From Planctomycetota bacterium (GTDB lineage Bacteria; Planctomycetota; MHYJ01; JACQXL01): a stretch of 64,000 bases of DNA. Below are positions 4,234 to 50,518 of this stretch, piece after piece. The stretch covers positions 7,520 through 71,519 of the forward strand of contig JACRIK010000002.1 in the NCBI GenBank assembly GCA_016235865.1, written 5' to 3'. The position numbers were made by a program, and so were the translations under genes. Within the stretch, counting starts at the first letter, position 1. Each line of letters opens with the position of its first letter. Under the pieces are notes generated by a model. The model saw nothing but the letters and a program-made list of their open reading frames with translations, searched no databases and was not told the DNA's origin.

Positions 4234-4249
4234 TTTACTAAATAGGAAT

Positions 4250-4290
4250 AGCCCCTGCCCCGAATGTTTTCGGGGCGGGGGTTTTTTTAT
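4250..4290 (+). terminator. rho-independent terminator between convergent genes
   Basis: gcccctgccccgaa / ttcggggcggggg stem followed by T7. Confidence 0.85.
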
Positions 4291-4562
4291 TCTATATTAA
4301 ATCCTGTCAGAGTGCCGTCCGCAGTTTCCCACTTAATATCCACGCTTGTTACCCTGGCCGAGTCCGGGCCCTGTTGGCACCATTTTACCATTTCATCTAT
4401 TTTGTCTTTCGGGCCTTCAAAGACGGTTTCCACCTGGCCGTTGGCGAGGTTCCTGACCCAGCCGGTTAAGCCTAGCTTATGAGCGGTTTCAAAGGTATAA
4501 TGCCGGAAGAATACGCCCTGGACTATGCCGGAGATGTGTAAATGAGCCCGGACTTTATTCAT
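4287..4562 (-). CDS. acyP: acylphosphatase
   Basis: SGIVQGVFFR and GLTGWVRNL motifs; 91 aa. Confidence 0.95.
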   Translation of the reverse strand: MNKVRAHLHISGIVQGVFFRHYTFETAHKLGLTGWVRNLANGQVETVFEGPKDKIDEMVKWCQQGPDSARVTSVDIKWETADGTLTGFNIE

Positions 4563-16080: not shown

Positions 16081-18957
16081 TTAAATGGGGCGTTTTACAT
16101 GGCGCCGTTTCACTAACCGATAGCCGATTAGTAATAATCCCGCACCGATAACCAATATTAATACAGGGTATCTGATGGTATAAATTATAGGTGTTAATGC
16201 GAGGCGAACTGCCGACGCCTGTAACGGGGTATCTTTAAGATGATTAGCAATAGGCGGGCTTACCCGATAGTACCAATTAACGAATTTACTTCCTAATTTA
16301 TTAGTCAGAAGATATCTATCCCTAAAATTCCTTAGGGTAACGACGTTAGGATGCATTGGATTTCCATATACGGCGGTAGCAATAAAGCAACTTTGCCTGA
16401 AGGCATTAGGGTCAAAATAAGCCAGAGAACTGCTGCCGGCAACTATGCCGTCGCCTTCGTTATAGGTGTCGTTTCCGGGCGGCGTCGGTAGTGATTGATT
16501 TGAAAAGCCACCCGACAGGTCAGCGCTGATTCTGGTAACAAAGATATCGCCAAAGCCGTTATAGGAAGTGTCATAAGCAATACTTGTTCCGGTTGTCGGC
16601 CAGGTTGGATAGGCCCCATCGCCGGCGATGCCTACAAATATCATATTACCGGCATTATCAGGTCTTATGCAGTATGCCGTATCCAAATATTGCCCGCCGA
16701 CCATTGTAGAGGCGTTGAGGATAGAAAGTGTTTCGTTAAATGAACAGACAAATACATCGCCGGCTCCGCCGGTATTGGTGATTGAAAAAGCATCTGATGT
16801 AGTAGGAAAGTCGGATGAATTGGTTTGTCCGCAGATGTAAATTTTATTGTTATTACCGCCGGTGCTGATAGAGTATGCCGTTTCGGAATTTACTCCGCCA
16901 ATCCAAGTGGATTGAAGAAGTTGGGTAAGATTAGCGGTAAGTCTTGAGACGAAAACATCTTGAGCGCCAAGGCCCGGTTGGGTGGCGCCGTAAGGATTCC
17001 ATGACTGGTAAGGATCGGGAGGGGTGCCAAAACTTGTGGTCGGGAAAAGCGGCGAACCGGTTATTCCGGTAACATAGACGGTTTGTTCGCCGGCTATCGG
17101 AGCGCCTAATGTAATGCCATAGCCGATTTCCTGGCCAACACGCCCCAGATAAGTAGAGGAACGGAGTGTCCTCAAGTCATTGGTAAAACGGGATATAAAA
17201 GCATCTGAGGCGCCACTCGTGTCAATTGCTATGTCGTAGGCAGATGTTAATGTTCCTTCGCCTAAGGTGGGGAAGGGGGGGCTGCCCGCAGTGGTAAAGC
17301 CGGTAATATAAACATTGCCGAGTTCATCAAGGGCAATGGCATTTCCAATATCATTGCCCGGTATCGTCGGAGAAGCGGGCGCTCCGCCTATAAATAGGCT
17401 CGCAAAATAGAATTCTCCCTGTCGTCCGGTAAATCCTGAAAGGTTATTGTTAAACTTGGCAACAAAGACGTCATTACCGCCGTTATAATTGATACTGGAA
17501 GAGCCGCTTGGATAATTTATTGAAACGTTTGTCGGGAAGGTATCGCTGTCGGTATATCCAACGACAAAGACATTATTCGAATCGTCTACAACAATGCCGG
17601 TGGCAGCATCGGCTGTTACGCTGCCTTGGGCTGTACCGCCCAGATACGTTGAAGCCAGTAGGGCGTTCAAGGAATTGCTGAGCTTGGCCACAAAGGCATC
17701 ATTTGGATTTACTTGTTGCCCCTGGACCGATGGTCCGTTATAAGAGGTGTCAAAGGCCGAAGGGGTAAATGGGCCGTTTGGCAGTATTATGGATGGTCTG
17801 TCGGTGGCGGTGGGGAATCCCGGTCCGGCAAAACCGCACACAAATACATTTCCTTGTCCGTCTAGTGTAATACCATAGGCACCATCAGAATTTGCGCTTC
17901 CGATAAAGGTGGAGGCCAGCAACGTGGTTAAGGTGGGGTTGAGCTTGCAGACTACGATATCATTGCTTCCGACATATACGGAGTTATAAGGAAGCGGGAT
18001 ATCAGGAGGAATTGGGGCAGTCGGGAAGTTATTGCTCCAAACAAATGTCCAGGGCGGAATGTAAACAAAAGAACCGGTTCCGAGTGTATATCCGGCGACA
18101 AATACGTTTCCGTTGGTTGGGTCAATAACTACTCCCCGCGCATAATCGGTGCCGAATCCGCCGATAAAGGTCGATGACAAAAGCGGGTCGATAATCAGGG
18201 GTAGCGTTTTATCATAATTACCTACCACAAAGCCATAAGTGGTTTTATTAATCAACCTGTAAGCGACCTCGACCGGTTTCCTTTCCCCGTTTACTTCTTG
18301 ATAGGCGATCGGGTGGGTAAATCCGACGCTTCTTTTACCGGCCTTTAATTCAAGCTCTCCTGCCTGATTCAGTGATAATTCTTCTGCGCCGGCCACAGAG
18401 AATTCTATGGATTCTGGTGTGCCGTCAGGAGTGATGATAAACAGTTTTTCTATATTCTTGGAGTTTGCCTTCAGGTTTAAGGTAATGCCTTTCCAGACTT
18501 CGCCCAAGGTAATAAGGTTGTATGACGGTATGTTACTGCGCCAGTTTTTCGGGTCATCGCCCAGGAAATAATTAACCGCGGTGGGCGAGTTTTCCAGGGC
18601 TTTTACTTGCGCTGTTTTATCTGTCAGCGGCGTTTCCTTCAGCGAAAATGTATAATGCCCTGAAAATGAGCCGTCCGGTAGGAGATAATCCTCAGCTCCA
18701 AAATAATCTTTTGGATTAACGATGGTATAAATTAATTCGCCCTTATCGGTAATAAAGACGGTGCCATTAATGGTCTGGATATAGAATTTGACTTCTTCAG
18801 ATTTTATCTGGCCTTCATTCTTTATAAAAGGCACCTGCATACCGGAGAGCGATTCTCTTTGGTCTTTTAACAGGACGCTTTGATTTTCAGCGCCTAACTC
18901 TGAATAGTATGAGAAGATCGCCAATAACAAAATAATATATATGCTAAGTTTACTCAT
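16081..18957 (-). CDS. secreted SBBP (beta-propeller) repeat protein with C-terminal CFI-box-CTERM domain
   Basis: signal peptide; FIKNEGQ...Y...PLIIDP N-domain; D.FV.K...L..STF.GG repeats; CFIATAVYG...LRNFRDRYL...YY..SP plus TM tail. Confidence 0.85.
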   Translation of the reverse strand: MSKLSIYIILLLAIFSYYSELGAENQSVLLKDQRESLSGMQVPFIKNEGQIKSEEVKFYIQTINGTVFITDKGELIYTIVNPKDYFGAEDYLLPDGSFSGHYTFSLKETPLTDKTAQVKALENSPTAVNYFLGDDPKNWRSNIPSYNLITLGEVWKGITLNLKANSKNIEKLFIITPDGTPESIEFSVAGAEELSLNQAGELELKAGKRSVGFTHPIAYQEVNGERKPVEVAYRLINKTTYGFVVGNYDKTLPLIIDPLLSSTFIGGFGTDYARGVVIDPTNGNVFVAGYTLGTGSFVYIPPWTFVWSNNFPTAPIPPDIPLPYNSVYVGSNDIVVCKLNPTLTTLLASTFIGSANSDGAYGITLDGQGNVFVCGFAGPGFPTATDRPSIILPNGPFTPSAFDTSYNGPSVQGQQVNPNDAFVAKLSNSLNALLASTYLGGTAQGSVTADAATGIVVDDSNNVFVVGYTDSDTFPTNVSINYPSGSSSINYNGGNDVFVAKFNNNLSGFTGRQGEFYFASLFIGGAPASPTIPGNDIGNAIALDELGNVYITGFTTAGSPPFPTLGEGTLTSAYDIAIDTSGASDAFISRFTNDLRTLRSSTYLGRVGQEIGYGITLGAPIAGEQTVYVTGITGSPLFPTTSFGTPPDPYQSWNPYGATQPGLGAQDVFVSRLTANLTQLLQSTWIGGVNSETAYSISTGGNNNKIYICGQTNSSDFPTTSDAFSITNTGGAGDVFVCSFNETLSILNASTMVGGQYLDTAYCIRPDNAGNMIFVGIAGDGAYPTWPTTGTSIAYDTSYNGFGDIFVTRISADLSGGFSNQSLPTPPGNDTYNEGDGIVAGSSSLAYFDPNAFRQSCFIATAVYGNPMHPNVVTLRNFRDRYLLTNKLGSKFVNWYYRVSPPIANHLKDTPLQASAVRLALTPIIYTIRYPVLILVIGAGLLLIGYRLVKRRHVKRPI

Positions 18958-18994
18958 ATACGCTCATTCCTCTTTTCTGAACTATTATACCCGC

Positions 18995-21943
18995 TTAAGC
19001 TTGAAAGGTTGCGTTACGTCTTAACTTAAGGGCTAATAACCATCCGGATAGCAACATTAGTATTATAACTGCGATTGCCGTTAAAACAGGATATCTTATA
19101 GTATATACTATCGGTGATAAGGCGGTTTTAACCAGGGATGCCTGAAATGGCGAATGTTTAAGATGTTCAGCAATAGGCGGGCTGATTTTATAGTACCACC
19201 TGACAAGGTGTCTTCCGGCGTGATTGGTCAAAAGACGGTTATCCCTGAATTTCTTTAATGTTAGAACGTTAGGATGAGTCGGGCTGCCGTAAACCGCTGT
19301 GGCGATAAAACATTGCCCGAGGGGCTTGGTGAAGGCATCAGGTCCGAACAACATCCCTCCGCTGCTCCCGCTGGTTAGTAAGGGGTCGACCTCTACGATA
19401 AATTGATATACCGGCGTCCAACTTACCCGGCCTGAACCATCCGACGCCACTATATACCAATAGTAAGATGTTTCATAGTTGACCGAAGGGACATAGGTTG
19501 AATCCGGTCCGGTATAAATCAGAGTTAACGGGTAAGCGTCAGTTGAGAGATAAACCCAGTAGGTTATCGTTCCCAGGGCATTTGAAGGCGCTAACCATTG
19601 TAATATCGGCGGGTTCGCTACGTTAGGGGATAGGTTAAGCGGAAAACTAATAATCGGTTCAGCCAAGGCAGATGTGGTTGCTGCCGTGCCACTCCGCAAA
19701 TTAGGTGTTATCCGGCAGACAAAAATATCGCCGGCGGCTGTATAGGCGCTTCCGTTATAAGGGGTAGTAATGGGATTGGAAAGCGGGAAGTCGGAAGAGG
19801 TGGTAACGGCTGTCACCAGCATATTGCCTGAATTATCGGCTGTTATTCCGGCCCTGCCCGGGACGGTCGTGCCGGATTCTGCGCCGGAGCCTCCCAGGTA
19901 AGTGGAAGCCACCAGGATAAGCTCACTATCCAGGCGGGCGACAAAGATATCCGATGTCCCTCCGATTGTGTTATCAACCGGAAGCGGATTGGCCGGATAA
20001 ATGGGGAAGTTCAGGGATGCGGTGTAGCCGGTCAAGTAAATCTGCCCGGCAAAAGGCGCCACCGCAATAGACCAGCCGATGTCCGAACCGCTGCCTCCCA
20101 TGTATCTCGAACCGATAATATTCAGTGACGGACTTAATTTAGTGACAAAGGCGTCTATTACTCCGACAAAGATCGTGCTGCCGCCGGTAAAGCTAATAGG
20201 AAAATTCAAGGAATTCGTCTCGCCGGTTATATGGATATTATTGGCCCGGCCTACCGCAATACCATAGCCGACGTCGTATAGCGTCCCTCCGAATCTGGTG
20301 GAATACAAAGTAGACGTCAGGCTGTTAGTGAACTTGGTGACGAATACGTCAGACGAGCCAATCTGAGCCACCAGGGGCACGGTCGGGAAATCAGGTGAAA
20401 GAGTCCCGCCGGTGACTATCACATTATCGGCAGAATCAGTAGCTATCCCGAAGCAGATATCGGCCTGCGAACCGCCCAGGAAGGTGGAAGCAAACCCGGC
20501 GGTCGTAAGGTTGTTATTGAATCTGGCCACAAAGCCTTCCTGAGTGCCGCCGCCATAAGTGGTATATGGACCGCCTACTGCCGGGAAATTAGAACTCGTG
20601 GTCAGGCCGCAGACAAAAACGTTATTATTCCTGTCCGTGGCTATCCCGTAACCTCGGTCATCGCCTGTTCCGCCTAAGAACGTAAAGGCAAATCCGGCTG
20701 AGGTCAGGTTATTATTCAATTTTGCCACAAAGGCATCCCAACCGCTAGCACCAGAACCATTGAAAGTGGTATCATAAGCGCCGGCTGTGGCCGGGGACCC
20801 GGGGGTTGCTGTGCTTGTGCCTACCGCGCCGGTAACAAAGACATTGCCTGAACTGTCAATCGTAAGGGCATATCCGTATTCAGACCTGAATGATTGAGAG
20901 CCTATAAAGGTTGATGCCAGAAGAGCCGAGATGTCGCTATTAAATTTGGAAACGAACGCATCAGTGGCAAAGGTATAAGATGCCTGGTAAACGCCGGCTG
21001 TGGTCGGATAACCCGATCCGGTATAACCCACGATAAAAACATTGCCTGCGGTATCTTTGGCAATGCCGTTGCTTACATCGGCCGAAGTGCCGCCGATATA
21101 AGTGGAAGCCAACAGCGGGTCAATAATCAGGGGAATTGTCTTGTCGTAATTACCCACGATAAAACCGTAAGTAGTTTTATTAATCAGTCTGTAAGACACC
21201 TCGACCGGCTTTTTTTCATTGGCTGTTTCCTGGTAGGCAAACGGCCGGGTGAAGTTTATCACCCCTTTGAGTGTTTTTATCTCCAACTCACCTGATTCGT
21301 TCAATGAGATCTGTTCTGCGCCATCCAGGGATATCTTGATGGATTCCGGATTGCCAGCCGGGCTGATAATGAAAAGTTTTTCTATATTCTTGGGGTTCGC
21401 TTTAAGGTTAACCGTAACGCCTTTCCACGCCTCGCCTAAAGAAATTAGGTTATAGGTGGGGATGTTATCGCGCGAGTTTTTTGGGGAATCAATTATGATA
21501 TAGTTCACGTAGGTCTGGGCGCGGCTTAATCCCCGGACATTAATGCCTGATTTGTCAGGATTGGTGACGAATGTTTCTCTGATAGTTTCAGATACATACT
21601 GGGCCGGCGAAGCCTCGGCGAAATCCAGATTATTCCGGGACAGAAGAATATCATTCTCAAAGCAAGCCGTTATGGCATCGGCTCCGATGTAATCCTTGGG
21701 GTAGAGGACGCGGTAAACCAAATCGCCCTTGTCGGTGATGAAAACCGTGCCGTTGAAGAGTTTGGTGTAAAATCTGACGTCATCCGACGCGATCTGTCCT
21801 TCATTCTGGATAAAAGGGATTTGGAGAGACGAGGCTTCTTTCCTGATGTTAATATCAGAATCCGATGCCGGGCTCTCCGCGTAGATAGAGGCGCCGGCCA
21901 AGATAATTATCGTCAGCAGTAACAAGGATAAACTCTGCCTCAT
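18995..21943 (-). CDS. second SBBP repeat / CFI-box-CTERM protein (tandem paralog) with extra FN3-like domain
   Basis: same N-domain and repeats; PILQWLAP...ITYWVYL...YYWYIVASD FN3-like segment; CFIATAVYG...LKKFRDNRL. Confidence 0.85.
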   Translation of the reverse strand: MRQSLSLLLLTIIILAGASIYAESPASDSDINIRKEASSLQIPFIQNEGQIASDDVRFYTKLFNGTVFITDKGDLVYRVLYPKDYIGADAITACFENDILLSRNNLDFAEASPAQYVSETIRETFVTNPDKSGINVRGLSRAQTYVNYIIIDSPKNSRDNIPTYNLISLGEAWKGVTVNLKANPKNIEKLFIISPAGNPESIKISLDGAEQISLNESGELEIKTLKGVINFTRPFAYQETANEKKPVEVSYRLINKTTYGFIVGNYDKTIPLIIDPLLASTYIGGTSADVSNGIAKDTAGNVFIVGYTGSGYPTTAGVYQASYTFATDAFVSKFNSDISALLASTFIGSQSFRSEYGYALTIDSSGNVFVTGAVGTSTATPGSPATAGAYDTTFNGSGASGWDAFVAKLNNNLTSAGFAFTFLGGTGDDRGYGIATDRNNNVFVCGLTTSSNFPAVGGPYTTYGGGTQEGFVARFNNNLTTAGFASTFLGGSQADICFGIATDSADNVIVTGGTLSPDFPTVPLVAQIGSSDVFVTKFTNSLTSTLYSTRFGGTLYDVGYGIAVGRANNIHITGETNSLNFPISFTGGSTIFVGVIDAFVTKLSPSLNIIGSRYMGGSGSDIGWSIAVAPFAGQIYLTGYTASLNFPIYPANPLPVDNTIGGTSDIFVARLDSELILVASTYLGGSGAESGTTVPGRAGITADNSGNMLVTAVTTSSDFPLSNPITTPYNGSAYTAAGDIFVCRITPNLRSGTAATTSALAEPIISFPLNLSPNVANPPILQWLAPSNALGTITYWVYLSTDAYPLTLIYTGPDSTYVPSVNYETSYYWYIVASDGSGRVSWTPVYQFIVEVDPLLTSGSSGGMLFGPDAFTKPLGQCFIATAVYGSPTHPNVLTLKKFRDNRLLTNHAGRHLVRWYYKISPPIAEHLKHSPFQASLVKTALSPIVYTIRYPVLTAIAVIILMLLSGWLLALKLRRNATFQA

Positions 21944-25100: not shown

Positions 25101-26062
25101 TTCAGCCAGCGGCTGAAGCGCACCGGGAGGCATCATATCAGAGTTACCAGCCTCAGACCGAGGCCCAGGACGCTCAAAACGCCGAGGACTGGCAGAAGGT
25201 CAACCAGACTATTGAGGAACTAAAATCCCGGCTGGGTGATATGACCGACGTCAATCTCTCGGCTATCGACCAGTTAAAGTCGCTCGAGGAGCGCAACGCC
25301 ACCCTGACCGTCCAGGAACAGGATCTGGCCAAATCCAAGGAGGCGCTCCAGGAATTCATCCGCAAGACCAACCGGGAATGCCGCGAACGGTTTGAGAAGA
25401 CCTTTGTCCAGGTGGCCGAGAATTTCAGCCAGCTCTTCCGGAAACTATTCGGCGGCGGCCGGGCCGAGCTTACCCTGGAAAAGCGTTCTGAGATAGAAGC
25501 CATTCCTGATTCCACTGTCATTCCTGCGGAAGCAGTAATCTCCGCCAACGGCGAGACATCGCCTTCGGGCGTGCAGACGGAAGGGCAGGCATCTGTTTCT
25601 CCGGAAGCGACACCGGGCCGGCGCCACAACTCGAATGACCTGCTGGAAGTGGGCATAGACATCATCGCCAAGCCGCCCGGCAAGGAGCCGACTTCTATAT
25701 CATTACTTTCCGGCGGTGAAAAGGCCTTAACCGCCCTGGCCTTGGTTATGGCCATTTTCAAACTCCAGCCCAGCCCGTTCTGTATCCTGGACGAGGCCGA
25801 CTCGCCCCTGGATGAGAACAACGTGGACCGCTTCTGCGCCATGATAAAGGAATTTGCCGTCGAAACCCAGTTCATCGTCATCACCCACAACAAAAAGACC
25901 ATGCTCTCGGGCGATGTTATGTATGGCCTGACCATGCCCACCCCGGGTATCTCCAAGAAGGTCTCCATCAAGATGGACGAGGTGGACAAATTCGTGGCCG
26001 AAAATCCGGACGCCGCGCCGGATAAAAAATCTCCGGTCCAGCCCGCGCTCCAACAGGCCTAA
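22172..26062 (+). CDS. smc: chromosome segregation protein SMC with an insertion of about 48 aa in the C-terminal head
   Basis: GFKSF, VGPNGCGKSN (Walker A), hinge IYGLVADIVEV / NGIISGG, LLSGGEK signature, FCILDEADSPLD, ITHNK. Confidence 0.97.
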   Translation: MKLTRLTLEGFKSFAHRTEVNFDYGTTILVGPNGCGKSNVVDSIKWVLGDRSVKSLRSEEMLDVIFNGASDAKPAGFAAVSLSFANSTGAPDAAKLPMDYEEITVTRRLHRSGESEYLLNNQPCRLKDIRELFMGTGVGMESYSIIEQGKVDFILRSNPFERRELLDEAAGISKYKAKRKESESKLLKVEQDLLRLTDILREVRREIRSIKIQATKAEKYKATLEELRAKKTQLSLHTYHQYFQKQAELTAKNTELKAGYETLNTRLRAIEEVIVAIDREIIQIDNSSAGHQDALVNLSGRISQTQQRIESSVTRRNELVQSEEETKNNIATYTQKAIDLRSRIVEVMQSYETVKREIETLETGLSEQDALYKDISRELENVGLKLEEKRNETFQTSHKKSNYQNELFSIQAELKNLAARREKFTARIKEIEIETETLKQNKSGLESSRRQVDDVINNLKTDIAQKEMVLKAIQNDLAGISAEFNKVKDDLNRISSRKEVLEDLELHHEGCSNGVRSVLESRSSIAANIYGLVADIVEVKPQYVNAAEAGLKGIADALIVQSQADALSVIQFVRDSQKGRVTAIAIDKLKSFSLRPPIPANNIAGIIGYADEIIQSVKLDNITPEMKSALARVLLGQYLLVDNSATAQQVLSEHLYDGPILTVNGEIINPNGIISGGSIDAGLGLISRKTELRDLNGKLLALAEQLKTLEQMQSNKAAEIDALQMELQKSRISVYEKSVELTTADNAVSELDRRLAILAKEMEISNLEHAEVAQQIQSLSDRAITTAQFVKELEAALVKIQAEIEQANNAANEYAQKKQQIETQVTELKVKQAKLLSQREHFTQQQAQMNEDIKHLEAVLEASANSLNEIKNRIIELDTARTADEQLLKELAEEQARVQSLVTEFRTRTQELKEKLGLQKTDEEKVLLEINTIQNSISETSYQERETTLKLDNLCEKHKEETGADLKALCEAMVGSIQPAAEAHREASYQSYQPQTEAQDAQNAEDWQKVNQTIEELKSRLGDMTDVNLSAIDQLKSLEERNATLTVQEQDLAKSKEALQEFIRKTNRECRERFEKTFVQVAENFSQLFRKLFGGGRAELTLEKRSEIEAIPDSTVIPAEAVISANGETSPSGVQTEGQASVSPEATPGRRHNSNDLLEVGIDIIAKPPGKEPTSISLLSGGEKALTALALVMAIFKLQPSPFCILDEADSPLDENNVDRFCAMIKEFAVETQFIVITHNKKTMLSGDVMYGLTMPTPGISKKVSIKMDEVDKFVAENPDAAPDKKSPVQPALQQA
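25517..25540 (+). repeat. dRS3/REP-like unit in frame inside smc (encodes VIPAEAVI)
   Basis: gtcattcctgcggaagcagtaatc is 23/24 identical to the reverse complement of intergenic 49229-49252. Confidence 0.8.
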
Positions 26063-26726: not shown

Positions 26727-27539
26727 ATGAGCAACCTAAAAATTAACAGCCGGCATCTGATTGCCGCGGGAATGATTCTTTTCCTGGGGTTGTCCCTGTA
26801 TTATATAGGAAGGCCAGGCCCGTCAGACCGAAAGATAACCGCGCCATCGATTGTAAAGTCGGAATCAGGTAAGGTATCTCAGCCCAGGCCGCGCGCCGGT
26901 TATCTGGTCAAATCAAGCGTGCGCCGGACCGAACCAACCGAGCCGGTTCAGACCTCGGATACCTTGGTTAAATCAGACAGCAGCGCGCCGGAGTCAATCA
27001 GCGGCGCCAGCGGATCGGGAAACGAGACCGCCGTTATAAATCCGCCCGTCTCCTTGTTTGAGGATATGTCCCGGATGGTTCCGGTCCAGCCCGAGATGGT
27101 GGAATTCATCATTCCGGATGTCGGCACCTTCCGGGGCGCCCTGATAAATGATACCCCCGGATCAATGCCACCGGTCGGCCCGATGGCCGGGCCGCCGGGA
27201 GCACCTAACGGCATCCCGCGTGTCATGGCCCCGCTCCAATTCTCCGGCACATTCGTTTCCCAGGACAATGAACGCCCGCCGGAAAATATAGTTTTTACGA
27301 TTATACCGCTGCCGGCCTTTTCCAGTCCTGACGGACTGCCGGGGCAGGCGCCCGAAGGGATTCCCGAAGCATTCGGCGGGAACCACGGGCCGGGCCAGGA
27401 TGGATTTATTATCGGGGATGTCCATGAGGGACCTCCGGACCTGATGGATATCCTTAAACAAATGAAAATAGAACCGGAACAGAAACCGGAAAATCCCGAT
27501 GAAATCGGGGAGGAGGAGATTTATGAAAAAGCTGAATAG
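26727..27539 (+). CDS. hypothetical membrane-anchored Pro-rich protein
   Basis: N-terminal hydrophobic segment, Pro/Gly-rich body, acidic tail; its 3' end contains the SD and start of the next gene. Confidence 0.6.
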   Translation: MSNLKINSRHLIAAGMILFLGLSLYYIGRPGPSDRKITAPSIVKSESGKVSQPRPRAGYLVKSSVRRTEPTEPVQTSDTLVKSDSSAPESISGASGSGNETAVINPPVSLFEDMSRMVPVQPEMVEFIIPDVGTFRGALINDTPGSMPPVGPMAGPPGAPNGIPRVMAPLQFSGTFVSQDNERPPENIVFTIIPLPAFSSPDGLPGQAPEGIPEAFGGNHGPGQDGFIIGDVHEGPPDLMDILKQMKIEPEQKPENPDEIGEEEIYEKAE

Positions 27540-30500
27540 GGTGCAGGTTACCATATTGGTAACGGTTCTCTTGGTAATCGGCCTGGCTGCCGGCGCGATC
27601 CAGGCCCAGACCAGCGTTTCGGCCAGCGCGAACACCAACGCGGATTTTTCCGCCAATACCGGCGCGATTGCCGGAAAGGTTTTGGTCCCGGGCGCCACTG
27701 TCACCGGCGGATCAGTCTCCGGCTCAATGCGCGATGCTGCCGGCCAGTATTATTCGGCCACCGCCTACATTGATGCCACCGGAAGTTATAAATTCATCGG
27801 CCAAAGCGGAAACTGGACCCTTTCGGTCAGCCCTTATCTCAGGGCCGGCTACAGTTTATCTGCCTATGGCTACAGCGAAAACGCCACCGCGGTTATCAAG
27901 GCCGGGGAAACCGGCAGTGTTAATTTCACCCTCAATCCGGGCTTCGTGCAGGGCACGGTGACTGTCCAGGGCGGAACCTCTGCCAGCCGCTATGTTTATG
28001 CCGATAACGGTTCTTACGCTTATGCAAATTCCCTGGGCCAGTATACGCTCCCGGCCCGGCCGGGCGCCAGAACCCTCTATGCCCAGGCCTATTTCAATGG
28101 AGTATATATCCGTTCCAATACCCGCGCCGCCACCGTGCTGGCCGGCCAAACCCTTAACGGAATTGACCTGGTCGTTTATCTGAACGCCAATTGCACCATT
28201 TCCGGCGTCTATAAACTGGGTAATTTAAGCGGAAACGTCAATGTATACGGAACTGAATCCGCCTTGCCGGCGCAGTTTTCCAAATACGTGCCCTTCCCCG
28301 GGAGTTATCAGGTCGCGGTCCCGGCCGGCGCCTGGTCCGTCCGCACCTGGGCTTATTTTAACTCTTACAATGATTTATTCTCGACCTGGCAGCCGCCCGT
28401 CACCCTGACGGCCGGAACTAATTTCCAGAACGACATCATTATCAACCCGGCCTATGCCGCCGGTAGCATCAAGCTTACGGCCACCGGCAGTCTGACCCTC
28501 CAGGACGTGGCCATGCAGCGGACCATGATTAACGCATGGTCTACGGACAATAAAGGATATTCCGGCTACAGTTATGACCAGCGCATTACTAATTCCCCCG
28601 ATGGCCCGCTATATACAAATATATCAACTACCGGCCAGAGCGCTGTGGCTCCTTATTATCCGAGCCGGGGGGAAAGCAGGGGCGAGTGTGATATCACGCT
28701 GGCCCCGGGCGCCTATCAATTGATGGCCTATGCGGTTTTCCCCAAAGGCCAGTCCTCAATGGGTTTGGTGAAGACGTCCACACTTACGGCCGGGCAAACC
28801 ATGTCCGGAATGAATTTCTCGGTCTCGCCGGGCAAGGTCCTGGCTACCATTAAGGTCAACGGCGCTACCCTAAGCCAGGGTTATGTCTATGGATATAGTT
28901 ATGACCTTTTCGGCGGTTGGAGTTCGGCCAACTACTCGACCGGCGCCGATGGCGTCTGCAACCTCATCCTCAAACCCGGCACCTGGTATCTCTCGGCCTA
29001 TGCCTATGTCAATAACTATACCACCTGGCTGTGGTTGGGCTCGCAAAAGGTCGTGGTCACCGCCGGCCAGACCCAGCAGATCGACCTCAATCCGCCCATG
29101 CTGACCGTTTACTCGCCGGCTGACAACCTGGTCACCTATTCGTCTAATGTGGCCGTGTCCGGCAATGCCTCGGACGACGTGGCCCTGGCCTCGGTCACCG
29201 TCAACGGCACCAAGGTAACGCTTTCCGCCAGCGGCTCATTCTACACCATGCTCCGGCTGGCCAATGGTTCCAATACCGTCACCGTCATCGCCACCGACGC
29301 CGCGGGCAACCAGACCAAGGTGGTCCGCAAGGTCACCCTGTTAGACCCGCCGCCGGTCCTGAAACTCCTGGCGCCGGTTGATAACACAACCGTCTATATG
29401 CCGGGAATAATAGTATACGGCCAGGCCACGGATAATCTGGGAGTCTTCTCTCTGACCGTCAATGGGGAAAGCGCGGCGCTGGATGGTTACGGTTATTTCC
29501 GTAAAATGGTTAATCTGGCCGTCGGGTTAAACACGATTACGGTCGTGGCCACCGACGCCTCGGGCAATATTGCCAAGGCCGTCCGGCGGGTCACCTATAT
29601 CCAGCCGGTCATTGCGGTCAATGTCAAGATTACCCCGCGGACCCTCAATAGCCCCAGCAACGGCCGCTGGGTCACGGTCTCAATAGAAATCCCCAAGGGC
29701 GTCCGGGCCAGCGCCTACCAGATTAACCCGGCCTCTATCCTGGTCATTGACCAGTTCGGGGTCAAATACACGGCTGACCCATCGGCGCCCAGCGAAGTCA
29801 AGGACAGCGACCAAAATGGGGTGGTTGAACTGACGGTAAAACTCGACCGGGCTAATTTGGAAAGCTCGCTCAAGAAATCACTGGGCTGGACCGATGGCGA
29901 TAAGGGCGCCGAAGCCACGGTCAACTTCACGGTTACCGGTAAAATCACCAACAGCTTCTATATGTTAAAAGGCACTGACTCCATCCGCGTCATCAACCAG
30001 GGCAATGGCAATGATAACGGCAATGGTAACGGTAATGACGACAAGAAAAGCGCGTCCGGGACCCCCATGTCCATTATTTACCATTCTGATTATGGCAGCG
30101 GTCTCTGGGCAATGAAACCGGACGGTTCAGAAAAGACACAATTAAGCACTTTTGGCTGGGCCGCCGAATTTTCTCCGGACAGCCAGAAAATAACGTTTGG
30201 TAAATATTATAATGCCGGTATCTGGACAATGAATGCGGATGGTTCAAATAAGATACAGTTAACCACAAGTGGCGGCGCGCCTACCTGGAGCCCGGACGGC
30301 CGGAAGATTGCCTATTTTGTGGGCGGCACGACTGGGTCTGAACGCCGTATCTGGATTATGAATAGTGACGGCACGAACGCCCGTCAATTATCCAATAACC
30401 CCGGGAGTTTCCCGCAATGGTCGCCGGACGGCACCAAAATCAGTTACCACGGAGAGGTAAACAACGGTATCTGGGTAATGAATGCGGATGGCGCTAACGA

Positions 30501-30900
30501 ATATCGTTTATTAGCCGCGGCCGGCTATCCGGCCTGGTCTCCGGACGGTACTAAAATGGCCTGTGTCTCTTTCTCGGATTGGTCGATATGGACTATGAAC
30601 TCTGATGGCAGCAACAAAAAAGCGCTGTCCTCTCGTAAGGGAGTAAATCCGGCCTGGTCTCCGGACGGAACGATGGTCATTTATGAAGACTTATCAGCCG
30701 GCAAAGGCATTTGGGTAATCAAAACGGATGGGACAGGCGAGAGATTAATTAATAGCGAAGGCCACGCGCCGGCTTGGGGCGGTGGCAGTAATGACGATGA
30801 TAATGACGACAATGATGATAGGGATGACAACGGCAACGGTAATGGTAACGGTAATGGAAATGATAATGGAAACGGTAACGATAAAGACAAGAATAAATAA
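27523..30900 (+). CDS. large secreted multidomain protein: beta-sandwich repeats, two Ig-like domains, TolB/PD40 propeller, Asn-Gly/Asp tail (start ATG 27523)
   Basis: SD ggaggag; signal peptide; VSGNASDDVALASVTVNG...L..G.NT.TV.ATDA.GN Ig repeats; WSPDG repeats; NGNGN runs. Confidence 0.85.
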   Translation: MKKLNRVQVTILVTVLLVIGLAAGAIQAQTSVSASANTNADFSANTGAIAGKVLVPGATVTGGSVSGSMRDAAGQYYSATAYIDATGSYKFIGQSGNWTLSVSPYLRAGYSLSAYGYSENATAVIKAGETGSVNFTLNPGFVQGTVTVQGGTSASRYVYADNGSYAYANSLGQYTLPARPGARTLYAQAYFNGVYIRSNTRAATVLAGQTLNGIDLVVYLNANCTISGVYKLGNLSGNVNVYGTESALPAQFSKYVPFPGSYQVAVPAGAWSVRTWAYFNSYNDLFSTWQPPVTLTAGTNFQNDIIINPAYAAGSIKLTATGSLTLQDVAMQRTMINAWSTDNKGYSGYSYDQRITNSPDGPLYTNISTTGQSAVAPYYPSRGESRGECDITLAPGAYQLMAYAVFPKGQSSMGLVKTSTLTAGQTMSGMNFSVSPGKVLATIKVNGATLSQGYVYGYSYDLFGGWSSANYSTGADGVCNLILKPGTWYLSAYAYVNNYTTWLWLGSQKVVVTAGQTQQIDLNPPMLTVYSPADNLVTYSSNVAVSGNASDDVALASVTVNGTKVTLSASGSFYTMLRLANGSNTVTVIATDAAGNQTKVVRKVTLLDPPPVLKLLAPVDNTTVYMPGIIVYGQATDNLGVFSLTVNGESAALDGYGYFRKMVNLAVGLNTITVVATDASGNIAKAVRRVTYIQPVIAVNVKITPRTLNSPSNGRWVTVSIEIPKGVRASAYQINPASILVIDQFGVKYTADPSAPSEVKDSDQNGVVELTVKLDRANLESSLKKSLGWTDGDKGAEATVNFTVTGKITNSFYMLKGTDSIRVINQGNGNDNGNGNGNDDKKSASGTPMSIIYHSDYGSGLWAMKPDGSEKTQLSTFGWAAEFSPDSQKITFGKYYNAGIWTMNADGSNKIQLTTSGGAPTWSPDGRKIAYFVGGTTGSERRIWIMNSDGTNARQLSNNPGSFPQWSPDGTKISYHGEVNNGIWVMNADGANEYRLLAAAGYPAWSPDGTKMACVSFSDWSIWTMNSDGSNKKALSSRKGVNPAWSPDGTMVIYEDLSAGKGIWVIKTDGTGERLINSEGHAPAWGGGSNDDDNDDNDDRDDNGNGNGNGNGNDNGNGNDKDKNK

Positions 30901-31193: not shown

Positions 31194-31526
31194 ATGAAAC
31201 AATCTAACTACGTCAGGATATTCAAGGCTCTGTCCAATGAACAGCGGCTCAGGATTTTTATGATGATTTACAAGGACTGTTGCGCGGCCGGGGGCGATGG
31301 CATTGCCAAATTTACGGCTGAAGAAAATTCCTGCTGCCCGGTGGCCGTGATTGAAAAGGCCTTTACCAAGGTCTGCGGCTGTATGAACCTGTCCCGGTCC
31401 ACCGTCTCGCACCATTTCAAGGAACTCCAGAACGCCGGCTTGATTACCTGCGAGCGGGACGGACAGATGTATCGCTGCCGGATTAATCCGGAGGCCGTCA
31501 ACGCCATTAAGGATTTCCTGAAGTAG
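31194..31526 (+). CDS. ArsR/SmtB family transcriptional regulator, Cys-rich
   Basis: FKALSNEQRLRIF, LSRSTVSHHFKELQNAGLI, wing RDGQMYRC; two CC pairs and CGC. Confidence 0.93.
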   Translation: MKQSNYVRIFKALSNEQRLRIFMMIYKDCCAAGGDGIAKFTAEENSCCPVAVIEKAFTKVCGCMNLSRSTVSHHFKELQNAGLITCERDGQMYRCRINPEAVNAIKDFLK

Positions 31527-31540
31527 TTTTTTTATCTAAA

Positions 31541-31561
31541 TAGTTCGATAGTGTTGGAACT
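31541..31561. promoter_or_regulatory. candidate ArsR operator AGTTC-N10-GAACT
   Basis: dyad; 15/21 identical to 31181-31201, which overlaps the arsR -10 and start codon. Confidence 0.5.
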
Positions 31562-31632
31562 GTAGTAATAGATGAATCGGTCCCGAATGCATGCGGGGCC
31601 ATAGTGGCGAATAAAACACGGTAACGCTCTAA

Positions 31633-31706
31633 CCCCGATGTCGCTAACGCTCATCGGGATAAGAGCCAGTAAAGGTCGTCCCTGTGGGACTCCTAACTGG
31701 CTCTAA
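31633..31706. repeat. composite palindromic element (ccccgat...atcggga plus TAA-GAGCCAGT...ACTGGCTC-TAA)
   Basis: ends at 31660-31670 and 31696-31706; same organisation as 2667-2770. Confidence 0.75.
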
Positions 31707-31725
31707 CAAAAGGGGGTGATAAGAC

Positions 31726-31896
31726 ATGTTCGACTGTTGCGGAAAGGATGCCAAGTCCCTGTGCGAGCAACTCAACTGCAAGGTCACGGAAACATCCAAG
31801 GGCGTCCAGGTTGAGATAACCGCCAAGGACGCGTCCAAGACAGAATCACTCAAGACCTTAGTTAAGGCCTTGCATGATTTCTGCGGATGTTGCTAA
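31726..31896 (+). CDS. 56-aa Cys-rich small protein, not in ORF track (putative metal/metalloid binder)
   Basis: SD agggggtga; MFDCCGKDAKSLCEQLNCKVTETSKGVQVEITAKDASKTESLKTLVKALHDFCGCC*. Confidence 0.8.
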   Translation: MFDCCGKDAKSLCEQLNCKVTETSKGVQVEITAKDASKTESLKTLVKALHDFCGCC

Positions 31897-47056: not shown

Positions 47057-49009
47057 TTATTCTATTTTGTATTTGCCGCCGGAATTGAAGTAATTCACGC
47101 CGTTATAACCGCCCCAGACAATCATTTCTGTGCCGGTCCAGGTGCCGCTGTGATAAAGCCGAGCGGCTGGGGCATTGTTGGCGGTTATCGGTCCCCAGAT
47201 AGCATAGACCGGGTCATAGGCTCCGCCTGATTGCAGGACGCCGTCGCCGCCCCAAATGAACATCTTGTTGCCGGTCCAGATGCCGCTGTGATACATCCTG
47301 GCCGATGGGGCATTGGTGGTGGAAAGAGTGGCCCAGGTATTTGCCGCCGGGTTATAGATTGCGCCGTCGCCTAATGGCGCGGTTCCGTTATAGCCGCCCC
47401 AAATAATGATTTTCTTGTTATAGGTCTCGGAGCCTTCCCCGGTCCAGACCGAAGAGAATCCCCATCTTTGTGACGGCGCATTGGTGGTGGCCATCGGGGT
47501 CCAGATGTCATAGGCAATGTCATAGATGCCGCCGGAAGTGCCGCCGCCGTCGCCGCCCCAGACAATCATTTTCATTCTCCAGCTGTCCGTACCCGAGACC
47601 GGGCCGGTCCAGAATGCCATGTGTTTGGAACGGATAGATGGAGTATTAGCATGAGTCCCGTTCCTGAGGTTGGTCAGTTCGCTGCTGGTGCGCCATTCGT
47701 CCAGCACCGGGTCATAGACGCCGCCGGTATTGAACGCGGAACCGGCCTTGCCGCCCCAGATAATCATGACGTCACCGGTCCAGACCGCGCTGTGGAATGC
47801 CCTGGAATTTGGCGCATTGGTGGTGGCCACCGCGGACCATGAGCCGCCGCCCCCGCCTGATGGGTCATAGATGCCGCCGTCGTTATAGTAGGTGGTGCTG
47901 GCGCCGGAGGCCTCGATATTGTCTATGAGAATAGTCACCGCGCCGGGGTCTGAGACCGCTTTTAAACCGATGGATTTTACGTCGGTGAGCAGTGCCGGGT
48001 TGGTGAAATTGAGCGTAACCAGCGTCCAGGCTCCGGCATTCAGGGTGGTATTTATGGTCAGGTCTTCAACCGTGGTGGAGACGGTGGGCGTAACGGCTAT
48101 TAAGAAAGATAACACGCCCGGCTGGATATTTTGCGAGGCCCTTATCCAGAAAGATGTTTGAGTGCGGGCCGAGATATTCAGCGGCGAAGGCAGGTCGCGA
48201 TAAGCCAGTACCCCAGTGGTGAAGGCTGTGTCAACGGCGATGCTGATAGAACTGGTTCCTTCTTTGGTGATGGATGAGTTAAGAGTCGCGGTGATGTCCG
48301 GTGTCGTGCCGGTCCAGTTGCTGTCGCAATTGTCTATGGTTTGGGTGACGGATGATATAGTATAACCGCCCCAGATAATCATTTTGGAACCTGTCCAGAT
48401 AGCGCTGTGGCCGGTCCGGCTGGATGGCGCCCCGGTCAGCGTGATATTAGACCAGGTATTGGCCGTCGGGCTATAGACTGCGCCGGTATTCAGGGTCTTT
48501 TGGCCGTCATAGCCGCCCCAGAAAAGTATCCCGTATGGCGGGGCCCAAAGCGCCGTATGATTGGTTCTTGAAGCAGGCGCGGTAGCATCGGCTAGTGTGG
48601 TATCCCAAGAAGTCAGGGTTCCGGCCACGTTGGAATAGTCGCTGGTGGTGACATAACTGTATGCCCTGACCCGGTAGTAATAAGTATTGTTGGCGGTTGG
48701 GGTTATGGCACCCTGGGTGGTATGCGTAAAAGCCGTGGTATCTGCCGTGAGGGTTGCTACCAAACTATAGGTAAGGGTCGGCGTGGCGCATTCCACATAG
48801 AAGCCGATTTCATTGTCCGTATTATCAGTCCAGGACATGGTGATAGAGGTGGCGGAAGTGGCCGTAACCACCAGATTGCCGGGCGCGTATAAATATAATT
48901 CGCCGCTGGAGCCGCTGTCCGAGTTGTTGTTGTTCAGGCAGCTGCTGATGCCGAGAAAGATGAAAAATGAGAGCATGAAGATAAGGGAGAAGATAATAAT
49001 CTTTTTCAT
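47057..49009 (-). CDS. lipoprotein with FN3 domain, Kelch repeats and an inserted beta-sandwich module
   Basis: lipobox GISSC; FN3 (SITMSWTDNTDNE.GF...YYYRVRAY); repeats R..H.A.WTG..MI.WGG...YDP..W. Confidence 0.85.
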   Translation of the reverse strand: MKKIIIFSLIFMLSFFIFLGISSCLNNNNSDSGSSGELYLYAPGNLVVTATSATSITMSWTDNTDNEIGFYVECATPTLTYSLVATLTADTTAFTHTTQGAITPTANNTYYYRVRAYSYVTTSDYSNVAGTLTSWDTTLADATAPASRTNHTALWAPPYGILFWGGYDGQKTLNTGAVYSPTANTWSNITLTGAPSSRTGHSAIWTGSKMIIWGGYTISSVTQTIDNCDSNWTGTTPDITATLNSSITKEGTSSISIAVDTAFTTGVLAYRDLPSPLNISARTQTSFWIRASQNIQPGVLSFLIAVTPTVSTTVEDLTINTTLNAGAWTLVTLNFTNPALLTDVKSIGLKAVSDPGAVTILIDNIEASGASTTYYNDGGIYDPSGGGGGSWSAVATTNAPNSRAFHSAVWTGDVMIIWGGKAGSAFNTGGVYDPVLDEWRTSSELTNLRNGTHANTPSIRSKHMAFWTGPVSGTDSWRMKMIVWGGDGGGTSGGIYDIAYDIWTPMATTNAPSQRWGFSSVWTGEGSETYNKKIIIWGGYNGTAPLGDGAIYNPAANTWATLSTTNAPSARMYHSGIWTGNKMFIWGGDGVLQSGGAYDPVYAIWGPITANNAPAARLYHSGTWTGTEMIVWGGYNGVNYFNSGGKYKIE

Positions 49010-49182
49010 AAATACAAATCCTTTTGGCGCCGAAGCGCCATGGCGCTACTTATAGCGCCACTTACTATCTATTATACCCCGCCGATGCGGAATTACCCGA
49101 ATATTTTGATATTTTATTATTGAAATGTCAAGAATAAAATATAAATTTGGTAGAAATAGGACTGTAAGAAGTTCCTTAATGT

Positions 49183-49252
49183 GTTATTCCCGTGAAAACG
49201 GGAATCCAGACAAATTAGGATAATCCTGGATTCCTGCTTCCGCAGGAATGAC
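49183..49252. repeat. pair of inverted ATTCCY-N8-RGGAAT (dRS3-like) REP units
   Basis: gttattcccgtgaaaacgggaatccag (49183-49209) and ctggattcctgcttccgcaggaatgac (49226-49252). Confidence 0.85.
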
Positions 49253-49273
49253 AAAGGGGCGCTAAATATAGAA

Positions 49274-50518
49274 ATGAAAAAACAGGTTGATCTGATTATT
49301 GCCAATGCCCGGGAATTAGTGACTGTTTCCCGGTCCGCAGAACTCGGGATTATCCATAACGGAGCGGTAGCGGTAAAGAAGGGCCGGATAGCCGCCGTCG
49401 GCGCCAGCGATGATATCCTCAAATCATATTCATCCCGCAAGGTGATTGATGCTGAGGATAAGACCGTAACGCCCGGGTTGATTGATTGCCATACCCATCC
49501 GGTTTTTATGGGCGACCGGGCGGATGAGTTTGAACTGAAACTGAAGGGCGCCACCTACCAGCAAATCGGGGCCGCCGGCGGCGGCATCAAATCCACGGTC
49601 CGCAAGGTGCGCAATGCCACTAAGTCCGAATTGAAAGCCAACGCATTAAAATATCTGAACCGTTTTATCAGATGCGGCACCACCACCATGGAAGCCAAGA
49701 GCGGTTACGGACTGACCACCGAGGATGAAGTGAAAATGCTGGAGGCGATTAAGGAGTTGAATGGTGGCGCCATTGGCGCCATAAACTCCGAGCGTCCGGA
49801 GCTGGTGCCGACCTTCCTGGGCGCGCACGAAATACCTGACGAATACCGGAATAACAAGGCCGGTTATGTTGACCTGATTATCCAGGAGATGATTCCGCTG
49901 GTGGCCAGGCGCAAGTTAGCCGAGTTCTGCGATGTGTTCTGCGAAAAGAACGTATTTGAGATAGAGGACAGCCGGCGGATACTCAAGGCCGCCCAGGCGC
50001 ATGGCTTGGGCATCAAGCTTCATGCTGATGAGTTCGCACCATTGGGCGGTGCGGAACTGGCCGCGGAATTGAATGCGGTCTCGGCCGACCACCTGATGGT
50101 CATTTCCGATGAGGGCATGCGCCGGATGAAGGAAAAGGGCGTGATTGCGGTCCTGTTGCCCGGCACGACCTTTATGCTGGGTTTGAAGAGCTATGCCCCG
50201 GCCCGGAAGATGATGGACGCCGGACTGACCGTGGCCCTGGCTACGGATTTTAATCCGGGCACGTCATTCACCGAATCGCTGCCGATGATAATGAGTATTG
50301 CCTGCGTCAAGATGAAGATGACCCCGGCCGAGGCGCTGACCGCCGCGACCATCAATGCGGCCCGCGCCATCAGGAAGGAAAAGCTCATCGGTTCGCTGGA
50401 ACCCGGCAAACAGGCCGATATGGTCATCTGGGATTGCCTTTCATATAAACATATTCCTTATCACTTCGGGGTCAATCTGGTTGATAAGGTGATTAAGGCG
50501 GGTAAGGTAATTGAATGA
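49274..50518 (+). CDS. hutI: imidazolonepropionase
   Basis: PGLIDCHTH, YQQIGAAGGGI, EAKSGYGL, TFLGAH, KLHADEF, SADHL, LATDFNPG. Confidence 0.97.
   Translation: MKKQVDLIIANARELVTVSRSAELGIIHNGAVAVKKGRIAAVGASDDILKSYSSRKVIDAEDKTVTPGLIDCHTHPVFMGDRADEFELKLKGATYQQIGAAGGGIKSTVRKVRNATKSELKANALKYLNRFIRCGTTTMEAKSGYGLTTEDEVKMLEAIKELNGGAIGAINSERPELVPTFLGAHEIPDEYRNNKAGYVDLIIQEMIPLVARRKLAEFCDVFCEKNVFEIEDSRRILKAAQAHGLGIKLHADEFAPLGGAELAAELNAVSADHLMVISDEGMRRMKEKGVIAVLLPGTTFMLGLKSYAPARKMMDAGLTVALATDFNPGTSFTESLPMIMSIACVKMKMTPAEALTAATINAARAIRKEKLIGSLEPGKQADMVIWDCLSYKHIPYHFGVNLVDKVIKAGKVIE

Follow-up and report, generated by a model that had tools for sequence, protein, structure and literature searches.

An NTS/dRS3-like hairpin repeat in frame within a hypervariable loop of a planctomycete SMC ATPase

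Palindromic repeats that are read in frame within proteins are a known kind of element, exemplified by the Rickettsia palindromic elements (RPEs), which are ∼100–150 bp in length, encode a conserved peptide module each, and lie in frame in conserved Rickettsia genes (PMC10969869). A different group of hairpin repeats is formed by the Neisseria Transformation Sequence (NTS), the dRS3 element (ATTCCC-N8-GGGAAT) that it encompasses and, more broadly, the Ssn-related motifs (SRM). According to the passages on these repeats in PMC11893778, the NTS was described in 2025, repeats of this kind are present in Neisseria and many other bacteria, and SRM flank genes of small GIY-YIG nucleases (Ssn) that are specific for single-stranded DNA (ssDNA) and cut the repeats as ssDNA, a cleavage likewise described only in 2025. 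In-frame copies are well documented in Rickettsia and little described for the NTS/dRS3/SRM family, with no mention of translated intragenic copies in the passages on NTS and SRM (PMC11893778). The present analysis concerns a unit resembling this latter family that is read in frame within a core chromosome-segregation ATPase, the SMC protein encoded on a 64,000-nt stretch of a Planctomycetota bacterium (contig JACRIK010000002.1; the whole stretch is here called the window). The account that we prefer, and hold to be probable, is that a loop of the SMC head, predicted to be disordered, is old and that the window lineage took one unit of the NTS/dRS3/SRM kind, 24–32 nt in length, into the 5' part of this loop.

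The translation of the SMC gene carries the Walker A (GPNGCGKSN), signature (LSGGE), and Walker B (ILDEAD) motifs, which together with a close match to solved bacterial Smc heads identify it as an SMC_N/ABC head protein; PF02463 is present in the SMC relatives. The closest solved structure is the Bacillus subtilis Smc head (PDB 3ZGX, E=2.7e-56), which aligns on both sides of an extra stretch in the window protein. Residues 24–103 and 154–276 of the C-terminal fragment correspond to residues 222–301 and 303–425 of the 3ZGX chain, leaving 50 residues of the window SMC opposite a single residue of B. subtilis Smc. The ∼49–53 extra codons are flanked by FGGGRAELTL and DLLEVGIDIIAKPPGK; they cap a beta-hairpin that belongs to the C-terminal head half, 21 codons before LSGGE. 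Among the SMC loci examined, the spacing from FGGGxA to xPPGK is 18 residues in 112 loci versus 67 in the window, which bears out the original prediction, made from the DNA letters, that a linker of normally a few residues is expanded here just upstream of the LSGG signature. An AlphaFold2 model of the C-terminal fragment, built from a 50-sequence alignment, has a pLDDT >90 on either side of the loop and a pLDDT of 40–50 for residues 113–142 (fragment numbering), a coil situated between strands 98–104 and 162–168. The loop is thus predicted by the model to be a disordered surface excursion from the beta-hairpin tip, as had been expected of a structure prediction.

Within this loop, the 24-mer GTCATTCCTGCGGAAGCAGTAATC (25517–25540) is identical at 23 of 24 positions to the minus strand of an intergenic site at 49229–49252. 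These two are the only sites in the window at three or fewer mismatches, and a second match arose in none of 100 dinucleotide-preserving shuffles. Palindromes of the form ATTCCYG-N6-CRGGAAT number three in the window (25520, 49186, and 49230) versus 0.07 expected. The copy in SMC is in codon phase 0 and, being devoid of stop codons, leaves the reading frame open. Its palindrome is still preceded by GTC and followed by C, and one G>T change disrupts the stem; because of this break and a folding energy at the level of shuffled sequence (z=-0.04), the unit looks like a decaying copy and not a maintained structure. The central claim of the original prediction, a REP/dRS3-like palindrome in frame inside the SMC head with 23/24 identity to the intergenic unit, therefore stands, given the match, the open frame, the modeled loop, and the shuffles.

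The possible extent of the repeat-derived stretch is suggested by metagenome contigs taken from Logan assemblies of a groundwater run (X1) and of a second sample (X2). Contigs of X1 and X2 match 25509–25540 with two differences and have unrelated sequence upstream. In X1, the short contigs that match 25509–25540 or 25513–25543 number five, with two to three differences and depths of 43–213, and the two that extend ahead of the match have a common upstream consensus that is unrelated to SMC. The stretch of repeat origin may be 32 nt long (25509–25540), since the similarity of the SMC copy to these contigs begins at 25509; by sequence comparison, the codons of repeat origin are 8–11 only (…VIPAEAVI). 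Short X1 contigs carrying the unit have a depth of 100–213 versus 20 for the genome; several genomic copies would fit this depth, and other organisms could also be its source. Additional ATTCC arm-like motifs are present just 5' of the unit. The partial copy that had been proposed immediately upstream exists as the 8-mer CATTCCTG, which recurs 18 nt upstream; its recurrence is near the chance level for 300 nt when taken by itself, and the contigs match from 25509.

The window derives from a metagenome assembly in which the repeat is abundant (depth of ∼650 versus 20 at 25512–25540), a setting that would favor chance, convergence, or an assembly chimera as the source of the match. Such an origin is nevertheless extremely improbable in view of the shuffles and the preserved reading frame. 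A 22,017-nt Logan contig of X1, with a depth of 20, covers 25200–25900 (701 nt) without a difference and at uniform depth; in X2, 25456–25672 is spanned by a 217-nt contig, again without a difference. A chimera is very unlikely because the independent X1 assembly and the X2 contig agree exactly, so that the read-support check that the original prediction had proposed speaks against an artefact; the same arrangement is also present in two further samples from a relative described below.

The family to which the unit belongs is best seen at the intergenic doublet (49182–49252), which is located between the divergent open reading frames (ORFs) 47057..49009(-) and 49274..50518(+). The two units form an inverted pair, and 49180–49260 folds as one long REPIN-like hairpin (-32.1 and -33.3 kcal/mol, z=-4.6 and -4.9). 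The dRS3 pattern is matched exactly by 49186–49205 (ATTCCCGTGAAAACGGGAAT), is missed by one compensated pair at 49230–49249 (ATTCCT…AGGAAT), and does not fit the SMC copy (ATTCCT…AGTAAT). Relative to the 28-nt NTS consensus, oriented as CGTCATTCCCGCGMAVGCGGGAATCYRG and taken from the NTS passages of PMC11893778, the window unit at 49225–49252(-) matches at 24 of 28 positions with one compensated C:G>T:A pair, the SMC copy at 21, and sister units of other planctomycetes at 26–27. The NTS search reported in those passages allowed one mismatch, and none of the units in the window lie within that limit (PMC11893778).

The same architecture, GTC followed by ATTCC(C/T)GCG-NAA-GC(G/A)GGAAT and CCAG, recurs in other planctomycete loci, of which L006/L085 (identical to the window unit), L060/L145, L117/L121, and L128 are carriers. 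Hairpins of the ATTCC…GGAAT type number 11 in 0.97 Mb of planctomycete loci versus 0–3 for scrambled control cores. A scan of IMG/VR viral contigs with GTCATTCCYGCGNAAGCRGGAATCC yielded 119 loci that hold 150 exact copies, with at most seven per locus. Rfam returned nothing meaningful at the SMC site or the intergenic site. In several planctomycete loci, an NTS-like unit is located close to the end of the SMC match, at ∼30–55 nt in L117/L121 and L128 and at ∼30–100 nt when L145 is counted, and the unit at L006:2191 is located between convergent genes.

The window-type family thus resembles the NTS/dRS3/SRM repeats in its 20-nt ATTCC(C/T)…(G/A)GGAAT palindrome, oriented with GTC at the 5' side and C-CAG at the 3' side, and in being dispersed, multi-copy, and hairpin-forming; it differs in its host, a groundwater planctomycete, and in that the window units lie outside the strict SRM pattern (as given in the SRM passages of PMC11893778). 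Likeness to the REP/REPIN-RAYT/BIME repeats consists of short imperfect palindromes that are mostly intergenic, tend to cluster, and form a long hairpin when paired in inverted orientation, as the doublet does. The REPs of Escherichia coli and Pseudomonas have a conserved GTAG-type tetranucleotide flank. The window-type units have a conserved GTC flank instead, one copy is inside a gene, and a RAYT gene is not seen in the window. In place of the original label, REP/dRS3-like, the name NTS/dRS3/SRM-like fits better than generic REP on the published description of the family, as far as its NTS and SRM passages go (PMC11893778).

The loop that houses the unit has a history of its own. Among the SMC loci fetched, the long spacing of 45–69 residues is found in a small clade that includes the window, and P0001/L343 are likewise long-looped at the same site. 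These long-looped relatives comprise 10 SMC sequences from eight different organisms, and outside the loop their identity to the window is 55–80%. The loops have an acidic composition with much Ser, Thr, and Pro and are mutually unalignable except at the ends, where the start KRSEIEA is common to the window, L002, and P0001, and the end GRRHNxNDLL is common to the window, L002, P0001, and L001. The 24-mer was not found in any of the 10 long-looped relatives. Judged from these comparisons, the loop is old and hypervariable, goes back to the common ancestor of a single planctomycete subclade, and predates the palindrome, because relatives of 55–80% identity have long loops that lack the 24-mer.

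These observations bear directly on the proposal, contained in the original prediction, that one RPE-like element, inserted in frame into a short linker, makes up all 53 codons. Its appeal is that the short linker is the norm, that the block does hold a repeat unit, and that RPEs act in this way in Rickettsia (PMC10969869). The likeness to the repeat covers 24–32 nt only, however, the long spacing extends to relatives of 55% identity that lack the unit, and the loop ends are shared with L002, P0001, and L001; a single event is largely refuted. The 53 codons are not one inserted element, since the long loop is present in relatives and the repeat spans a small part of it, and we regard the single-element proposal as very unlikely. 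What survives of the idea of an RPE-like process acting on a core gene is an in-frame unit at a tolerant site; an element of RPE size with a peptide module of its own is not found, as the repeat-derived stretch is younger than the remaining loop sequence, which is unrelated to it. The comparison with RPEs accordingly has two sides. In both systems a selfish palindromic repeat is in frame where the structure of a conserved housekeeping protein can accommodate it. The SMC-loop units differ in measuring 24–34 nt, in belonging to an unrelated family, in lying inside a pre-existing loop of a planctomycete SMC, and in that several repeat families alternate at one site. The original prediction had named an old loop in relatives lacking this repeat family as its refutation. 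The findings come near to this, the old loop being real, and stop short of it, as the family does exist in related planctomycetes and a closer relative carries another hairpin of this kind at that very codon.

This relative, rel A, is represented by a 445-nt contig (X5 and X6) and a 216-nt contig (X3) from another groundwater study. It matches 25476–25525 with five differences and, after GTCATTCCT, goes on with CCCGATTTATCGGGAGGAATCCAGACCCAG, the hairpin arms being GTCATTCCT-CCCGATTTATCGGGAGGAATCCAG. Its unit, GTCATTCCTCCCGATTTATCGGGAGGAATCCAG, is a different and perfect hairpin with a 12-bp stem, which shares both codon position and reading frame with the window unit (VIPPDLSGGIQ). This intragenic copy fits the SRM pattern published in PMC11893778, as stated in its SRM passages, and is stable (-21 kcal/mol, z=-3.8). 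The 216-nt contig returns to SMC sequence in frame after 96 nt. The flanks of rel A are 95% identical to those of L001 (seven differences in 153 nt) and the 5' part of its loop is window-like, a mosaic that suggests recombination within the SMC gene. A chimeric protein query designed to recover rel A found no match. At least three different SMC relatives, each with its own loop, are present in one groundwater study (contigs of X3, X5, and X6 on window 25476–25608 and on L001 3150–3515).

Two further lineages, L001 and L003, harbor a second repeat of ∼34 nt in the loop. It consists of two hairpins in the layout TCCGCC-GRA-GGCGGA-T-stem2-AAG. In X1, the L001 unit is present in 69 unrelated contigs, in both orientations, at a depth of ∼6850 versus 20 for SMC. 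Contigs of X3, X7, and X8 contain it as well, and a depth spike was seen in X5 in a first, broader comparison. The L003 unit matches dispersed high-depth contigs with sharp boundaries and reaches a depth of 1715 in X8. The loops of L022 and L084, which served as controls, lack such a depth spike. The codon phase is 0 for the L001 unit and 2 for the L003 unit, and in the aligned units two stem pairs of the second hairpin are changed on both sides and still paired. The different phases and the paired changes place the likeness of the two units at the DNA level and not at the protein level. A 16-mer scan of viral contigs for this repeat returned 63 loci, about the number expected by chance, none of which extends into the second hairpin, and a longer pattern returned none; because these matches are at chance level, the 34-nt family is characterized by metagenome depth only.

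A CRISPR repeat was considered as the identity of the 34-nt unit, as a contig of X1 contains a pair of L003-type copies separated by 33 nt; it was rejected as a general explanation since the 69 L001-type contigs are single-copy, in both orientations, some of them long, and none in arrays. The 34-nt repeat is absent from the window. Straight after the 24-mer, at 25541–25556, is an imperfect palindrome, TCCGCCAACGGCGAGA, that matches the first hairpin of the L001 and L003 repeat (TCCGCCGRAGGCGGAT) at 12 of 16 positions and could be a decayed unit of that family or a product of chance.

Because this part of the loop is occupied by other hairpin repeats in relatives, the loop looks like a permissive sink for hairpin repeats and is possibly a preferred target. 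In the account that we prefer, a long loop would have arisen in the ancestor of the planctomycete subclade and been free to vary, and one dispersed hairpin repeat unit, contributing 8–11 codons, would later have entered the 5' part of the existing loop. The unit would now be translated as …VIPAEAVI… within SMC, with no demonstrable role, while it decays. A loop of this kind would tolerate any stop-free sequence, so that hairpin repeats that happen to land there would persist and be translated. The repeats themselves may be moved or copied as ssDNA by Ssn-type GIY-YIG nucleases, RAYT-type transposases, or template switching.

A stronger reading holds that the loop is an active hot spot or a repeat cluster within an essential gene, built from hairpin units and remodeled by them, with new repeats directed preferentially to sites beside hairpin arms already there and ssDNA enzymes driving its growth, its hypervariability, and the mosaic recombination. 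It draws on four lineages with four different units from two families, all within the first ∼25 codons of the loop, on the sequence that rel A has in common with the window as far as the 5' arm GTCATTCCT, beyond which the two diverge inside the hairpin, and on the combination of L001-like flanks with a window-like 5' loop in rel A. Loop DNA also folds better than shuffled sequence in L001, L003, L084, and L022 (z of -2.0 to -2.6), which is mostly not so for the flanking coding DNA; it folds better than the flanks in five of eight lineages, and the ATTCC arm-like motifs lie upstream of the unit. Greater variability is reported for Neisseria genes that adjoin dRS3, and the ssDNA cut made by Ssn is located next to NTS, according to the passages on these repeats in PMC11893778. 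The same pattern could come from tolerance of insertions alone, with no targeting, and half of the loop-bearing lineages show no repeat, no mobilizing gene was seen in the window, few lineages are sampled, and rel A is incompletely known. The hot spot, together with the notion that loop hairpins mark recombination breakpoints, is possible but unlikely.

A role for the hairpin in the smc gene or its mRNA, as a nuclease site by which recombination tracts are kept short, as a pause in translation between the head sub-domains, or as an RNA stability element, is highly improbable. The perfect and stable copy in rel A would suit such a role, as would the L001 and L003 stems that stay paired through changes on both sides and the several loops that out-fold their shuffles. 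The window copy is without a stem, however; position, frame, family, and sequence of the units are all unconserved between lineages; and many loop-bearing and all loop-less relatives have no hairpin at all.

Several observations weigh against a loop that took up one NTS/dRS3-like unit. The published degenerate SRM pattern, HGTCWYN(0-2)YYVSBRHN(0-5)WNVSBRGN(0-2)RNCYNB (SRM passages of PMC11893778), has no match in the window, whose units deviate from it in a single compensated base pair or in having GTT instead of GTC, and the SMC copy fails to match even with the G restored. Family members in the 64-kb window number only three, and no ssn, RAYT, or other mobilizing gene was found there by a Pfam scan of 10 small ORFs, a motif scan, and inspection of ORFs in the large gaps. 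Because the units deviate from the strict SRM pattern and the 64 kb hold no ssn or RAYT gene, the repeat is named NTS/dRS3-like, as one that appears to belong to or adjoin the NTS/dRS3/SRM family and not as a proven member. The window loop is no longer than that of L001 (67 versus 68 residues), MAFFT places TVIPAEAV opposite NTPPADSV and NTAPADGS of L002 and P0001, and removal of the 11 repeat-derived codons does not improve the alignment of the loop to its relatives (scores of 42 to 43, 77 to 73, and 56 to 54). Since the loop is not longer and the removal brings no gain, the unit may equally have entered by simple insertion or by a short templated replacement.

The comparisons with relatives add to this counterweight. 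The nearest relatives with full sequence are 77–80% identical and have unalignable loops, leaving no clean before-and-after pair that would define the boundaries of the event. Scans of genome and metagenome collections returned no relative above 78% identity, a protein search with a 110-aa query spanning the loop returned short, distant fragments only, and the 90% clusters of the window SMC, P0001, and P0002 have one member each. Rel A is known from contig alignments and a 30-nt overhang consensus, with 66 nt of its loop unseen, and at least five of the loop-bearing lineages, about half, have no recognizable repeat. Several loops fold better than shuffled sequence (z of -2.0 to -2.6), so that a structural role is also possible.

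Units of this kind are also in frame in other proteins. The Mu-like transposases of L229 and L256 contain an NTS-like unit that reads WIPASAGMT in the linker between HTH_17 and Mu-transpos_C, with the ATTCCTGCGGAAGCAGGAAT variant as in the window, and a Prim-Pol/D5_N primase-helicase of L331 contains one that reads LDSRFRGND in the linker between its two domains. Peptides such as VIPAxAGI, WIPASAGMT, DSRFRGND, and HSRESGNP flag repeat-derived sequence, sometimes within real proteins. The SMC gene is a case of an NTS/dRS3-like unit in frame inside a core chromosome-segregation ATPase; new here are the perfect hairpin of rel A at the codon of the window unit and the 34-nt units in the L001 and L003 loops, so that a single loop, predicted to be disordered, has taken different hairpin repeats in sister lineages. 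The locus provides a natural system for studying the route by which selfish hairpin DNA gives conserved proteins new peptide sequence, and for asking if hairpin repeats mark recombination breakpoints. None of the RNA runs checked for the loop region contains it; a tryptic peptide of the SMC protein is listed in the table together with the positions of the features.

Positions of the SMC gene, its loop, and the hairpin repeats in the window and in related loci (L numbers), with the loop spacing of long-looped relatives
Feature	Position	Strand	Remarks
SMC chromosome-segregation ATPase gene, intact, 1296 aa	22172..26062	+	ORF and translation
Hypervariable lineage-specific loop, 49–53 extra codons, EKRSEIEAIPDSTVIPAEAVISANGETSPSGVQTEGQASVSPEATPGRRHNSN	25478..25636	+	Spacing, PDB alignment, AlphaFold2, relatives
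Possible remnants of more repeat arms, CATTCCTG, then ATTCCACT	25501..25516	+	Weak evidence when taken alone
NTS/dRS3-like hairpin unit, in frame, GTC-ATTCCTGC-GGAA-GCAGtAAT-C	25517..25540	+	Translated VIPAEAVI
SMC tryptic peptide, SEIEAIPDSTVIPAEAVISANGETSPSGVQTEGQASVSPEATPGR			
Intergenic unit 1, TGTTATTCCCGTGAAAACGGGAATCCAG	49182..49209	+	Core fits dRS3 (ATTCCC-N8-GGGAAT) exactly
Intergenic unit 2, TGTCATTCCTGCGGAAGCAGGAATCCAG	49225..49252	-	Inverted relative to unit 1; 24/28 to NTS consensus; identical to L006:2187
Second repeat, ∼34 nt, L001 unit, TCCGCCGAAGGCGGATCCGCCTCTGGTGGAGAAG	L001:3337-3370		Codon phase 0; sharp boundaries
Second repeat, ∼34 nt, L003 variant, TCCGCCGGAGGCGGATGAGCCTCAGGCTCAAG	L003:3313-3346		
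Protein with in-frame NTS-like unit, Mu-like transposase	L229:6422-8854	-	
Protein with in-frame NTS-like unit, Mu-like transposase	L256:7648-9969	-	
Protein with in-frame NTS-like unit, primase-helicase	L331:176-3244	-	
NTS-like unit near end of SMC match	L117:1174		Terminator-like position
NTS-like unit near end of SMC match	L121:3710		Terminator-like position
NTS-like unit near end of SMC match	L128:3713		Terminator-like position
NTS-like unit near end of SMC match	L145:3854		Terminator-like position
FGGGxA-to-xPPGK spacing, 68 residues	L001, L081, L082		Three independent assemblies of one organism
FGGGxA-to-xPPGK spacing, 62 residues	L002		
FGGGxA-to-xPPGK spacing, 61 residues	L083		
FGGGxA-to-xPPGK spacing, 57 residues	L022		
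FGGGxA-to-xPPGK spacing, 56 residues	L003		
FGGGxA-to-xPPGK spacing, 45 residues	L004		
FGGGxA-to-xPPGK spacing, 69 residues	L084		

The surroundings of the SMC genes hold a few additional features. In L343, the region 3' of the P0001 SMC gene (3103–4436) encodes a restriction endonuclease of the HindVP type as well as a DNA methylase, as indicated by precomputed Pfam hits. In the window, the neighbors of the SMC gene on both sides (16081–21943(-) and 27499–30900(+)) encode very large repeat proteins of 958, 982, and 1133 aa that appear to be secreted, and the 1133-aa protein consists in part of a repeated …WSPDG… (beta-propeller-like) region and ends in an Asn/Gly/Asp low-complexity tail (NGNGNGND…). 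A 1.1-kb gap contains, within 31194–31896, a small ORF (31194..31526) that resembles an ArsR-type HTH regulator and a 56-aa Cys-rich ORF (31726..31896) that ends in …CGCC; the two might form a metal-sensing pair.

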